From NCBI GenBank assembly GCA_964558645.1, contig CAZLEV010000004.1:181569-245568 (forward strand): a stretch of DNA of 64,000 nt, read 5' to 3'. Below are positions 23,158 to 58,037 of this stretch, in pieces. The notes beneath the pieces are model-generated. The model made no database searches, was not told the DNA's origin, and saw nothing but the letters and a program-made list of their open reading frames with translations. Source of the stretch: an uncultured archaeon (GTDB taxonomy: Archaea; Asgardarchaeota; Thorarchaeia; Thorarchaeales; Thorarchaeaceae). Within the stretch, counting starts at the first letter, position 1. Every line of letters starts with the position of its first letter. A program made the position numbers and the translations under genes.

Positions 23158-23574
23158 CTAACTGAAACCGTACTTGTACTCCTCTCCTTGAGGAATCTCC
23201 CTAAACGCCAGGATGATATTACCCCGCACATCGTCAAATTTGTGGATAAGAATCGTGTTGACGGTGTCTTCTCCCTCAATCTCTAGTCTTTCCTTGGCGA
23301 GGAGTACCTCAAACAGATGTCGTGTTCGTCGGCGTACAGCCGAGAAGAGGTTCTGGTATCGCTTTCGTTGCGATGGGCGAATATCCCAACGATTCATGAT
23401 GAAACGGTTCGCTAGCGCATTGCTGGAGATCAGAGTGGAGCGAGGTTCAGTCTGGGAAACAACTATGTTCTCTGCTAGCACTTCCTTTAGACAGTCAACA
23501 ATGCCTGCTAGTTGTGACGGCGTGGGAATGGGCTCTTTCTTCAGTGATTTGCGGAGGGTCTTGTAGTCTGACAG
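23158..23574 (-). CDS. Hypothetical basic protein, paralog of the neighbouring gene; possible CTG start
   Basis: Paralogy as above; frame is open upstream of the GTG at 23481 to a CTG at 23574 that has an AGGAG SD. Confidence 0.7.
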   Translation of the reverse strand: MSDYKTLRKSLKKEPIPTPSQLAGIVDCLKEVLAENIVVSQTEPRSTLISSNALANRFIMNRWDIRPSQRKRYQNLFSAVRRRTRHLFEVLLAKERLEIEGEDTVNTILIHKFDDVRGNIILAFREIPQGEEYKYGFS

Positions 23575-54720: not shown

Positions 54721-54928
54721 TTTAGTTTCCAAGAATGAAAACTGAGAGTGCCCAAGGAATCGGAGCGAGTTTCTCTAGAATAGACAGAATGTCCATCGGG
54801 AAACCGTCCTTCGCAACCATTAAAAGCGTTCTTTCGCCTGTGTTAAGTTGAGTAATGGGAGCTGCATAGACACCTTGATTCTACCTTGACATTCCGCAGT
54901 ACCAACATCTCATTCACACTCAAGGGGA

Positions 54929-55906
54929 ATGACTTGTGTGAAGAGCGTACATGGCTATTCCACTGAGAAAGAAGGTATTCTTGAGTCAACGGAAAAGACC
55001 GTTTGCCCGGAGTGCGGTTCTGAGCTTGTCGTTGAAGACCTCGCGCGTGGTGAGAGAGTATGTGGGGGATGTGGCCTTGTTCTATCAGATCATCACATTG
55101 ATTCTGGTGCCGAGTGGAGATCTTTCACTGCTGAAGAGGCAGAGGCAAGAAGTCGCGTCGGTGCCCCTATGAGGTATACGGTTCACGATAAGGGTCTCTC
55201 CACAGTGATTGATTGGAGGGACAGAGACACATCAGGCAGGAAGTTGAGTCCTCGGAGGAGGTCTGAGGTTTACAGGCTGAGGAAATGGCAGATACGTTCG
55301 CGCGTGCACAGCTCAATGGACAGAAACTTGGCTCAAGCAATGTCGGAGTTGGAGAGGTTGTCATCCCAACTCGGGATTCCGAAACCAATCAGGGAGCTTG
55401 CAGCCTTACTCTACAGAAAATCTATCATCAAGAAGCTTGTCAGAGGACGATCAATCGAGGCCATGGTTGCAGCTACCCTATATGCCGCTTGTCGGATGCG
55501 AGTCAAACCGCGGCCTCTTGACGAGGTTGCCGATGTTTCAAGAATCGACAAGAAGAAACTCGGTCAGTGTTATCGCCTGCTGTTGAGAAGCTTGAATGTT
55601 AAGATACCTCTGTCCAATCCTATCGACTATATCTCCCGATTTGCGTCCCAGCTGGACCTATCAAGCCCTGTACAACTGAGAACTGTGGAGATACTCCAGC
55701 AGAGCCGCGAGAAGGGGCTGACAATTGGAAGAGATCCGCTTGGCCTTGCTGCAGCTGCAATATATGTTGCCTCAATAATGCTTGATGAAAGAAAGACTCA
55801 AAGAGAGATTGCCGAAGTTGCCCGCGTCACAGAGGTGACTGTGAGGAATCGCTACAAGGAAATCGTTGAAGTGCTCGAAATCGATGCAAAATCGACTGGA
55901 AGATAG
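54929..55906 (+). CDS. tfb: Transcription initiation factor IIB
   Basis: CPECG Zn ribbon, EWRSF, SRVG, RLRKWQ, RGRSIE, TQREIA, EVTVRNRYKE. Confidence 0.98.
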   Translation: MTCVKSVHGYSTEKEGILESTEKTVCPECGSELVVEDLARGERVCGGCGLVLSDHHIDSGAEWRSFTAEEAEARSRVGAPMRYTVHDKGLSTVIDWRDRDTSGRKLSPRRRSEVYRLRKWQIRSRVHSSMDRNLAQAMSELERLSSQLGIPKPIRELAALLYRKSIIKKLVRGRSIEAMVAATLYAACRMRVKPRPLDEVADVSRIDKKKLGQCYRLLLRSLNVKIPLSNPIDYISRFASQLDLSSPVQLRTVEILQQSREKGLTIGRDPLGLAAAAIYVASIMLDERKTQREIAEVARVTEVTVRNRYKEIVEVLEIDAKSTGR

Positions 55907-55973: not shown

Positions 55974-56312
55974 TTATCTTCGTCCACCCTTGAATGACCA
56001 GTCGACCTTGATTGAATCCTCAGGGAAACCCATCTTGGAAAGAACATCAACGATTACTCCACGATGGTCGCCCTGGAGTTCAACATGTCCACGCTTCGCG
56101 GCACCGCCGCACGCAAGCTTGCTTTTCAGCTTCGTGGCCATTTCACCAAGGTCTATATTCTTATCGAAGCCTTCTACAACAGTGGTCAGTCTTCCCCACT
56201 TTCTTCGTTCGACAGTCACCGTTATTCGAGCTTCTTCTTGCGCTATGGTCTCACACACACAGAGGTCTGCAGGGAGACCGCAATTGGGACAAATACCACC
56301 TTCATCGGACAG
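55974..56312 (-). CDS. sui1: Translation initiation factor aIF1/SUI1 with an inferred CUG start
   Basis: LKSKLACGG, ELQGDHR; conserved N-terminal ICPNCGLPADLCVCE lies upstream of the track's GTG; CTG at 56312 with AGGAG SD and an in-frame TAA two codons upstream. Confidence 0.9.
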   Translation of the reverse strand: MSDEGGICPNCGLPADLCVCETIAQEEARITVTVERRKWGRLTTVVEGFDKNIDLGEMATKLKSKLACGGAAKRGHVELQGDHRGVIVDVLSKMGFPEDSIKVDWSFKGGRR

Positions 56313-56453
56313 AGTTTACTTACTCCTGAAATGTGTTTTTTCTTGCAGTTGATAGACCCATAGATGTGGGAGTGCCATATAAGTGCAACTGCGGGGGAAG
56401 AAAGAGGACATTGACAAGAGTAAAGAGGAGTTAACTGAGCTTCTTTAAATAGA

Positions 56454-58037
56454 ATGTCAGTAGTCATCGTTGACGCGCTAAGTGCTGGCCACGGGATAAG
56501 GAGCAGCTCCCGGGATTCCATCGGCTGCGGGCCGCGAGCCATAGCAGGCGTTCTCGAGAGAGCTGACATATCATGTCGGATTCACAGGATTGAGGACATT
56601 CTCAGTACAAGGAGAACACTGAAAGGATACAGCCATTGTGCGATCAGCGGTATGAGCATGGATCTGCCAGTCATCAGCAGATGCACTGCGATATGGCGAC
56701 ACACAAGGCCGAATGGAAAAGTACTACTCGGTGGACCGATTGCCACTGATTGGCGGAACACACTTCAAGTGTGCAGACCGGACGTGCTGGTTGTCGGTGA
56801 AGGTGAAGAAACACTTGCCCAGCTGGTGGATAGAGGGATTCTTCATGATGAGATAGACCTGACGGAAATCAGAGGTATTGCATACCTCGAAGGCAACAAC
56901 ACCATATTTACAGGAGAGAGGCGGCTCATACCCGAAGATGTACTGTGGAGAGAGTTTCCACCCTCCACTGTGCGTGTTATAGACTACAGAGCTTATCAGG
57001 CCAGCAGAGTCTATGTAGAAACGGTACGGGGGTGTTCCAACTTCAACAGAGCCAAAATCACACTTCCTGATGGGCGAGAATGCAGCCACTGCGGAAACTG
57101 TGACTCCCCTGAGAGCACCCGACGGCAACGCTGTCCTGAAGGGATTCCTCCCGGATGCGGCTTCTGCAGTGTCCCGAATATATGGGGACCACCGCGGAGC
57201 AGACCTATAGAGAGTGTGGTGGCGGAGGTCAGGGAGCTCGTTGAACTTGGAGTGCACAGAATCGTATTAGAATCGCCCGATTTTCTGGACTATTCACGAG
57301 GACTGTATCCAATGACGAATCCGTGCGAACCGCCAGCCAATATCGATGCAATTAGTGACCTGTTGAAAACCCTAGTAGAGATTCCCGAGATTTCGGATGG
57401 GGATTGCCACATCAGTATTGAGAACATGAAGGCCTGCCTTTTCTCTGACCAAGTCGCACGAAGTATATCCGGGGTGCTATCGCATATATCCCCAAATATC
57501 GGCCTTGAAACAGGTTCGCCTGAACACGCAGAGCGGATTGGAAAATGCGGGGGTCCAGCTGATGTCTTGAGAGCGGTCAGAACAGCTGTGAAATACAAGA
57601 TGAATCCCTACGTCTACTTCATCTATGGATTGCCGGGTGAAGACGAGAATACAGTTAGGGAGTCCGAGGACATGATGAAGGAATTGAGCGAGGCCGGGGC
57701 AGAGAGAATAATTCTGTATGGCTTCAGGGCCTTGCCGGGTTCGGCCTTTGAAGAGTTCCGAAGTGCATCAGAACGCGACCCGATAGGAAAACGTCTCAGA
57801 AGAGTCGCCGAGAAGATCAACTATCAGAAGAAGAAAGACTACGTAGGTGAAACCATCAGAGGCATTGCGGCTGAACCCTCGTTCGACCATCATGGCTACA
57901 CTATGATTTATCCCTTGACAGACGGGCCTCTCATGACTGTAAGCGGGGGCTACTCACCCGGGACTCTGGTCCGAGTTAAGATTGAAGAGGTCATAAGCGC
58001 GGGCCTAGTGAAGGGAGTAGTTGTCGCCCAAAACTAA
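56454..58037 (+). CDS. B12-binding-like + radical SAM + TRAM protein
   Basis: LGGP, GEGE, ETVRGC...GCGFC, IGLETG, YGLPGE; C-terminal TRAM-like domain. Confidence 0.85.
   Translation: MSVVIVDALSAGHGIRSSSRDSIGCGPRAIAGVLERADISCRIHRIEDILSTRRTLKGYSHCAISGMSMDLPVISRCTAIWRHTRPNGKVLLGGPIATDWRNTLQVCRPDVLVVGEGEETLAQLVDRGILHDEIDLTEIRGIAYLEGNNTIFTGERRLIPEDVLWREFPPSTVRVIDYRAYQASRVYVETVRGCSNFNRAKITLPDGRECSHCGNCDSPESTRRQRCPEGIPPGCGFCSVPNIWGPPRSRPIESVVAEVRELVELGVHRIVLESPDFLDYSRGLYPMTNPCEPPANIDAISDLLKTLVEIPEISDGDCHISIENMKACLFSDQVARSISGVLSHISPNIGLETGSPEHAERIGKCGGPADVLRAVRTAVKYKMNPYVYFIYGLPGEDENTVRESEDMMKELSEAGAERIILYGFRALPGSAFEEFRSASERDPIGKRLRRVAEKINYQKKKDYVGETIRGIAAEPSFDHHGYTMIYPLTDGPLMTVSGGYSPGTLVRVKIEEVISAGLVKGVVVAQN

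Follow-up and report, generated by a model that had tools for sequence, protein, structure and literature searches.

The locus studied here raises the question of where translation begins on the gene for aIF1, a factor with a role in start-codon fidelity, and whether the codon used there lets the factor limit its own synthesis. The window is the whole stretch of 64,000 nucleotides that was analysed, lying on contig C4 of the metagenome-assembled genome of an uncultivated Thorarchaeota (Asgard) archaeon (G000; 3.63 Mb, 49.6% G+C, 93% complete, estimated contamination 6%). Within it, the stop-to-stop frame 55974..56315 on the minus strand is SUI1/aIF1 (PF01253, 64.2 bits against a cut-off of 25.5, E 1.5e-17, residues 28-98). 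The gene is present as a single copy in the genome, and orthologues were found in 41 of 41 relatives and in 145 of 161 genomes of the phylum. The protein carries the zinc knuckle CX2CGLPX3C(V/I/M/A)C (CPNCGLPADLCVC), a motif that 64% of archaeal aIF1 sequences possess according to Monestier et al. 2018 (PMC6237735), and the Cys, G, L and P residues of the knuckle are invariant in our aIF1 alignment (A1). An earlier note on this DNA had proposed that aIF1 starts at a CUG and represses its own translation by rejecting that codon.

Read on the minus strand, an in-frame TAA is followed by ACT (56315-56313), by the CTG and then by the conserved N-terminus (SDEGGICPNCGLP); the codons 3' of the CTG are TCC GAT GAA GGT GGT ATT TGT CCC AAT TGC GGT CTC CCT, which encode S D E G G I C P N C G L P. 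Our reading of the window letters bears out the coordinates that the earlier note had given for the TAA and CTG, as well as its statement that no canonical start precedes the Cys motif. Between the TAA and the zinc knuckle, the minus-strand reading of the locus holds no ATG, GTG or TTG in frame, and the first such codon, the GTG at 56258, falls between Cys 3 and Cys 4 of the CX2CGLPX3CVC knuckle, so that starting there would cost three Cys. The spacer of 10 nt between AGGAG and CTG also stands, with the small correction that AGGAG itself is now placed at 56327-56323. The positions of all features are collected in Table 1.

Table 1. Features of the aIF1 locus (window coordinates), CTG-start genes elsewhere in the genome (contig coordinates) and start codons of the genes used as controls.
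Feature	Position	Strand	Remarks
aIF1/SUI1 coding sequence	55974..56312	-	CTG 56312 to stop codon 55976-55974; 112 codons plus stop
CTG, proposed near-cognate start codon	56310..56312	-	homologous column is GTG or CTG in orthologues
In-frame TAA	56316..56318	-	closes the frame two codons 5' of the CTG
Shine-Dalgarno (SD) AGGAG	56323..56327	-	10-nt spacer to the CTG, holding the in-frame TAA and ACT
N-terminal zinc knuckle C-P-N-C-G-L-P-A-D-L-C-V-C, coding region	56253..56291	-	
GTG, first in-frame canonical candidate	56256..56258	-	Val in the knuckle; use as start would lose three of four Cys
Out-of-frame ATG with 20-codon ORF	56243..56305	-	stop TAG 56245-56243; judged incidental
TTATAT, TATA-box-like	56377..56382	-	64 nt 5' of the CTG
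CTG-start gene L112	G000:C7:126841-127740	-	
CTG-start gene L111	G000:C2:74550-75449	-	
CTG-start gene L114	G000:C26:24971-25870	+	
CTG-start gene L113	G000:C7:10226-10924	-	
Control aIF2-beta			ATG in 25/25 family genomes
Control radical-SAM neighbour			ATG in 23/24 family genomes
Control Rad50-like ATPase			ATG 10, GTG 7, TTG 7, CTG 3 family genomes
Control aIF1A			TTG in 27/27 family genomes
Control TFB neighbour			mostly GTG/TTG in family genomes

The gene lies between a convergent neighbour, a TFB/TFIIB-type transcription factor (window 54890-55906 (+)), and a divergent one, a radical-SAM-like protein (window 56439-58037 (+)), both named from a reading of their sequences, and this order of TFB, aIF1 and radical-SAM gene is held in nearly all of the 24 family genomes examined. 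The radical-SAM-like gene has an ATG at 56454 with no SD at a usable distance and is possibly leaderless.

The authenticity of the CTG was checked on Logan contigs, which cannot show rare alleles. Four public runs have contigs over the region; two of these runs may be the source of the assembly and the other two are diverged relatives. The CTG is retained in run X3, from freshwater sediment (depth ~75), and in run X4, from a microbial mat (depth 64); the contigs of both differ from the window at 56295 and 56321, are identical to it at 56310-56315 and show no indel between 56258 and 56330. An assembly error at 56312, which the earlier note had named as the outcome that would count against it, is thus not what we find, as the independent assemblies (contigs) all read CTG. 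For a metagenome-assembled genome with 6% estimated contamination and a region covered at contig level, a sequencing or assembly error, or a decaying pseudogene, might be suspected, but either is exceedingly improbable. Four assemblies, of which two come from unrelated habitats, agree on the CTG and show no indel; a dozen other species-level genomes have this CTG too, and the ORF is intact, single-copy and 75-96% identical to the family orthologues.

We consider it highly probable that translation of aIF1 begins at the CUG at 56312, since the interval from the in-frame stop to the conserved N-terminus offers the full, knuckle-bearing protein no other usable codon. The 5' regions of aIF1 extracted from 34 genomes of the same family point in the same direction, and 'Candidatus Thorarchaeota' MAGs (Asgard/Promethearchaeota) show the same pattern. 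The codon before the conserved S-D-E-G-G-I-C is GTG in 18 of the 34 genomes and CTG in 12, the latter spread over 6 genera; it is ambiguous in 3 (genus g12, where a CTG is accompanied by a possible in-frame GTG four codons 5') and perhaps ATT in 1. Neither ATG nor TTG occupies this column in any of the 34, and orthologues with AUG, which would have told against the initial proposal, are therefore absent from the family. It is this GTG/CTG column that lends strong support to the structural reading first offered, namely a start at an SD-placed CTG. Alignment of 20 family leaders reveals no exception to the TG of the start codon, and 18 of them have AGGAG in an identical position, a pattern that is more than chance. 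The Ser codon after the start is spelled TCC, TCA, TCG, TCT, AGC or AGT in the family, that is, with six codons from both codon families, and the sequence 3' of the start is therefore coding and under protein-level selection. On the 5' side of the CTG the frame is closed in the family or shows no protein conservation.

In 20 of 24 orthologous loci a TTATAT element is found 51-70 nt 5' of the start, and this conserved TATA-like box indicates that the aIF1 mRNA is leadered; we infer a 5' UTR of ~40 nt, which would put the 5' end of the transcript near 56353. The leader is A-rich and unstructured. In an RNAalifold analysis of 20 leaders there was essentially no conserved RNA structure around the start (-0.23 kcal/mol, no covariation), and the fold of the single leader sequence was no better than those of shuffled sequences (z -0.19). 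A riboswitch-like or hairpin mechanism was dropped in view of this absence of conserved structure.

That the start lies elsewhere, at the ATT at 56294, at the GTG at 56258 or at the ATG at 56305 or a uORF followed by frameshifting or reinitiation, is in our judgement quite improbable. Almost every archaeal aIF1 gene does have an Ile codon (ATT, ATA or ATC) ahead of its first Cys, which speaks for the ATT; however, this ATT is 28 nt from the SD, compared with a genome-wide peak of spacing at 8-11 nt after GGAG, and the S-D-E-G-G between it and the CTG is maintained at the protein level through synonymous changes and Ser codons of both families. The GTG-type orthologues begin exactly in the CTG column, and initiation at the GTG at 56258 would yield a knuckle-less protein deprived of three invariant zinc ligands. 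The ATG at 56305 and its 20-codon ORF exist as first described, but we judge them incidental: the ATG arises from the Asp-Glu codons GAT GAA, is missing where orthologues write GAC GAA, and is absent in 14 of 24 orthologues. Frameshifting from it was rejected, the ATG not being conserved and the independent assemblies showing no indel. A route through a uORF finds its support in genus g1 only, where an ATG (window 56359-56361 (-)) 15 nt past the TATA box opens a uORF of 13-19 codons ending at or just past the aIF1 start. That ATG probably lies 5' of the transcription start, 11 of 21 family leaders are without any ATG, and no uORF is conserved among them; reinitiation was consequently discarded as a general mechanism.

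On the simplest view, Met-tRNAi would initiate at the SD-positioned CUG. A dedicated CUG-reading initiator tRNA was rejected as an explanation, the genome having a normal initiator tRNA (A1:U72, GGGG/CCCC anticodon stem, anticodon CAU, one intron). ARAGORN also called a second tRNA-Leu(CAG) at G000:C2:120592-120681 (-). This 90-nt candidate encodes its CCA, has an A1/C72 mismatch and forms a poor D arm; it could be a degenerate tRNA or a spurious call.

CUG is a real but minor start codon in this genome. We estimate that SD-led starts in G000 are ~62% ATG, 23% TTG, 13% GTG and 3% CTG, so that ~38% are non-ATG. With a 4-mer SD there was no enrichment of CTG (ratio 0.97). A cleaner test, confined to in-frame codons after a 5-mer SD and at least 5 codons 5' of the first canonical start, gave 34 CTG observed against 16.4 expected, the top of all 61 codons (Poisson P ~1e-4), and a broader test gave an excess of ~26 sites (z 1.8), or ~3% of SD-led starts. 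The view that CTG is unused outside aIF1 was dropped once the cleaner tests had given this small real excess, and the number of other CTG-start genes in G000 is estimated at 20-26. The genes L112, L111, L114 and L113, all outside the window, have SD-positioned CTG codons as their apparent starts; they encode EPSP synthase, an AAA_23 ATPase of the Rad50/SMC-like kind, a DUF1156 protein and an ABC ATPase. According to Pfam several genes need the CTG start, those for the EPSP synthase, the Rad50-like ATPase and the DUF1156 protein included. In the EPSP synthase and the Rad50-like ATPase the protein domain sets in at the CTG, with profile positions 5 and 1 at residues 8 and 5, and the CTG aligns with an ATG/GTG/TTG/CTG start column of the family orthologues; in one genome of this comparison such a CTG comes directly after an in-frame TGA.

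Since CUG is a real start elsewhere, a CUG start on aIF1 becomes credible, and aIF1 is not unique in having one. NCBI table 11 admits CTG, ATT, ATC and ATA as starts beside ATG, GTG and TTG. The CUG described here resembles such ordinary prokaryotic alternative starts in that several genes, such as those for the EPSP synthase and the Rad50-like ATPase, use it after an SD; it differs from them in its distribution, accounting for ~3% of SD-led starts genome-wide and yet standing on aIF1 in 35-44% of family genomes, the remainder having only GUG. The finding that would have been awkward for the earlier note, a CUG equally common throughout the genome, was accordingly not obtained. Gene callers limited to ATG/GTG/TTG presumably mis-call such genes: with CUG a working start in Thorarchaeota, they are expected to truncate aIF1 (with loss of the knuckle), the EPSP synthase and other proteins.

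The window holds one further ORF of this kind, at 23161-23574 (-) (G000:C4:204729-205142, L117). It is 138 aa long, has no Pfam match and has a CTG as its only SD-positioned start (AGGAG plus 8 nt), the next canonical start lying 31 codons 3'. The CTG is kept in the same-genus orthologue, and in the more distant homologues of this small paralogous family the start is TTG, ATG or GTG and about as far from the conserved core.

Two lines of evidence make it likely that the aIF1 start is kept weak by selection. First, aIF1 shows 0 ATG and 0 TTG in the 34 family genomes, which are related and not independent samples, compared with ~85% ATG plus TTG among SD-led starts; the suboptimal start is thus conserved beyond the background usage of the same genomes. 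Secondly, a tree built from the two flanking genes shows at least 4 changes of the start state, with CTG on both deep and shallow branches, and the chance of so many changes never reaching ATG or TTG, if they followed genome usage, is by a rough approximation 0.156^3-4, or ~0.004-0.0006. Among the compared genes (Table 1) only aIF1 is confined to GTG/CTG, and its CTG share is by far the highest. Conserved non-AUG starts in general are not rare in the family, aIF1A (TTG) and TFB (GTG/TTG) being likewise non-AUG.

The gene for aIF1A, the factor that partners aIF1 (region G000:C6:31979-32170 (-), L285; loci L280-L306), has its TTG behind a GGAGGA-type SD in all 27 genomes, and in G000, its closest relative and a few others (e.g. 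L282) an extra ATG lies three codons 5', where the other genomes have the SD. It is a second initiation factor with a conserved non-AUG start, next to aIF2-beta with its uniform ATG.

Beyond the family, the aIF1 start was surveyed in ~145 Asgard genomes and 50 other archaea. In family f9 (23 genomes, loci L194-L215; Loki-like, as a guess) 20 of 23 genomes are without a canonical aIF1 start. Their reading frame has an in-frame stop and then, within 1-3 codons, a conserved ATT/ATC five or six codons before the first Cys, as in TGA AAA AAG AGT ATT AAA GAC GAC GAG ATT TGT. ATT, as found in these genes, is also the near-cognate codon of bacterial infC. The start is ATA behind AGGAGG in Odin-type and Baldr-type genomes, CTG in Hod-type genomes and a Hadarchaeota genome, ATA in an Aenigmatarchaeota genome, mostly GTG in Heimdall-type genomes, TTG in Methanomethylicia and Halobacteria, and ATG in many other Asgard and archaeal families. 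Judged from these sequences, near-cognate aIF1 starts appear to be recurrent and independently acquired and are not universal. With ATG in so many families, any loop built on them is not universal either.

We hypothesized that the weak start and the function of the encoded protein are coupled. The ordinary initiator Met-tRNA (CAU) would read the SD-positioned CUG through a first-position mismatch, and selection would hold the start weak, with CUG or GUG only and never AUG or UUG in the family. As aIF1 would destabilise initiation complexes on non-AUG codons, abundant aIF1 would reject its own CUG, scarce aIF1 would relax stringency and allow more aIF1 to be made, and the resulting negative feedback would keep start-codon stringency at a set point. 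The argument for feedback draws on the known biochemistry of homologues together with the comparative patterns. Homologues of aIF1 reject non-AUG complexes in vitro: the S. solfataricus factor does so for AUU, and the P. abyssi factor serves start-codon fidelity (PMC4705826, PMC6237735). By homology, it is assumed that aIF1 rejects non-optimal start codons here as well. Its own start site is near-cognate, a CTG without a canonical alternative on which independent assemblies agree. The feedback loop itself we put forward tentatively, at a shade under even odds; for the whole explanation, a CUG start, kept weak, with feedback, we would set the probability at roughly 0.5.

The chief competing explanation is a weak start that lacks feedback, in which the CUG sets a low constitutive level of translation, or is near-neutral in a lineage that tolerates any NUG after an SD, and in which aIF1 is insensitive to its own start. 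We regard this as a serious possibility, if one with appreciably less than an even chance. CUG starts occur in other, unrelated genes of the genome and family, and with 20-26 of them in this genome a CUG start alone is no proof of a regulatory device. The ~38% of SD-led starts that are non-ATG favor the rival too, and from aIF1A (TTG in 27/27) and TFB (mostly GTG/TTG) it follows that conserved non-AUG starts need not mean feedback. In the leader, neither RNA structure nor a uORF is conserved, and further regulatory elements are absent. Moreover, GUG, which is ordinary as a start codon in archaea, serves about half of the family, and this is counted against feedback. Neutral drift, on the other hand, leaves unexplained why the easy G-to-A change to ATG, or a TTG, was never fixed in 34 family genomes when G/C transversions at the same start were fixed several times. 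Nor does drift explain why unrelated lineages have independently placed AUU, AUA and CUG on aIF1, and the encoded factor is precisely one that is known to reject such codons. The weak CUG start with feedback is the explanation that we prefer.

Fidelity factors that limit themselves through a poor start are known from other systems. Bacterial infC, which encodes IF3, reportedly has an AUU start with translational autorepression (work attributed to Butler et al. 1987, a reference given in PMC4705826), and its feedback is said to have been proven by an AUU-to-AUG mutation. The likeness is close in that the gene for a factor rejecting non-canonical starts itself begins at one, behind a normal SD, and that the odd start is conserved over many species, being even AUU/AUC in the aIF1 of family f9. 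The two cases differ insofar as IF3 and aIF1 are unrelated proteins, and the CUG/GUG of aIF1 is a first-position mismatch whereas the AUU of infC is a third-position one. Feedback is proven for infC but putative for aIF1, and the non-canonical aIF1 start is not universal in archaea.

The eukaryotic eIF1 gene, with an AUG in poor Kozak context, is under negative autoregulation (Ivanov et al. 2010, as cited in PMC6237735 and PMC4705826). The two factors, aIF1 and eIF1, are direct homologues with a SUI1 domain in common, and the logic would be the same, a high level of the factor giving higher stringency and less initiation at its own suboptimal start. In eIF1, however, the weakness resides in the AUG context and is sensed by a scanning ribosome, whereas in aIF1 it resides in the codon and would be sensed by an SD-positioned, non-scanning complex; archaea also do without eIF5 and its reciprocal loop. 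It is plausible that we are dealing with a known regulatory principle, that of infC and eIF1, in a possible variant, with the genome-wide use of CUG as an added finding. A 2014 review described it as unknown whether non-AUG starts regulate anything in archaea (PMC4705826), and a full-text literature search, with most subscription journals outside its scope, found neither a non-canonical start of aIF1 nor its autoregulation described. The '-1 frameshift' reported for S. solfataricus aIF1 is a sequencing error and unrelated to the CUG start (PMC8211752).

In conclusion, two domains are known to curb stringency through the poor start of a fidelity factor's own gene, AUU in the case of IF3 and a poor Kozak context in that of eIF1. 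If our explanation is true, the conserved CUG/GUG on aIF1, together with AUU/AUA in other lineages, suggests that the same principle operates in the third domain, with the near-cognate starts sitting in the archaea closest to eukaryotes and on the direct homologue of eIF1. More speculatively, and rather unlikely to hold in full, the near-cognate aIF1 starts (CUG/GUG in Thorarchaeota, AUU/AUC in the Loki-like family, AUA in Odin- and Baldr-type genomes, CUG in Hod-type genomes and Hadarchaeota) might represent a third, independently evolved homeostat of start-codon stringency beside IF3 and eIF1, and the ~20 other CUG-start genes, such as those for the EPSP synthase and the Rad50-like ATPase, might form a small regulon that tracks the level of aIF1. 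For the organism itself it is plausible that a single aIF1 gene beginning at CUG would fit a self-limiting synthesis of the factor, like that of IF3 and eIF1.
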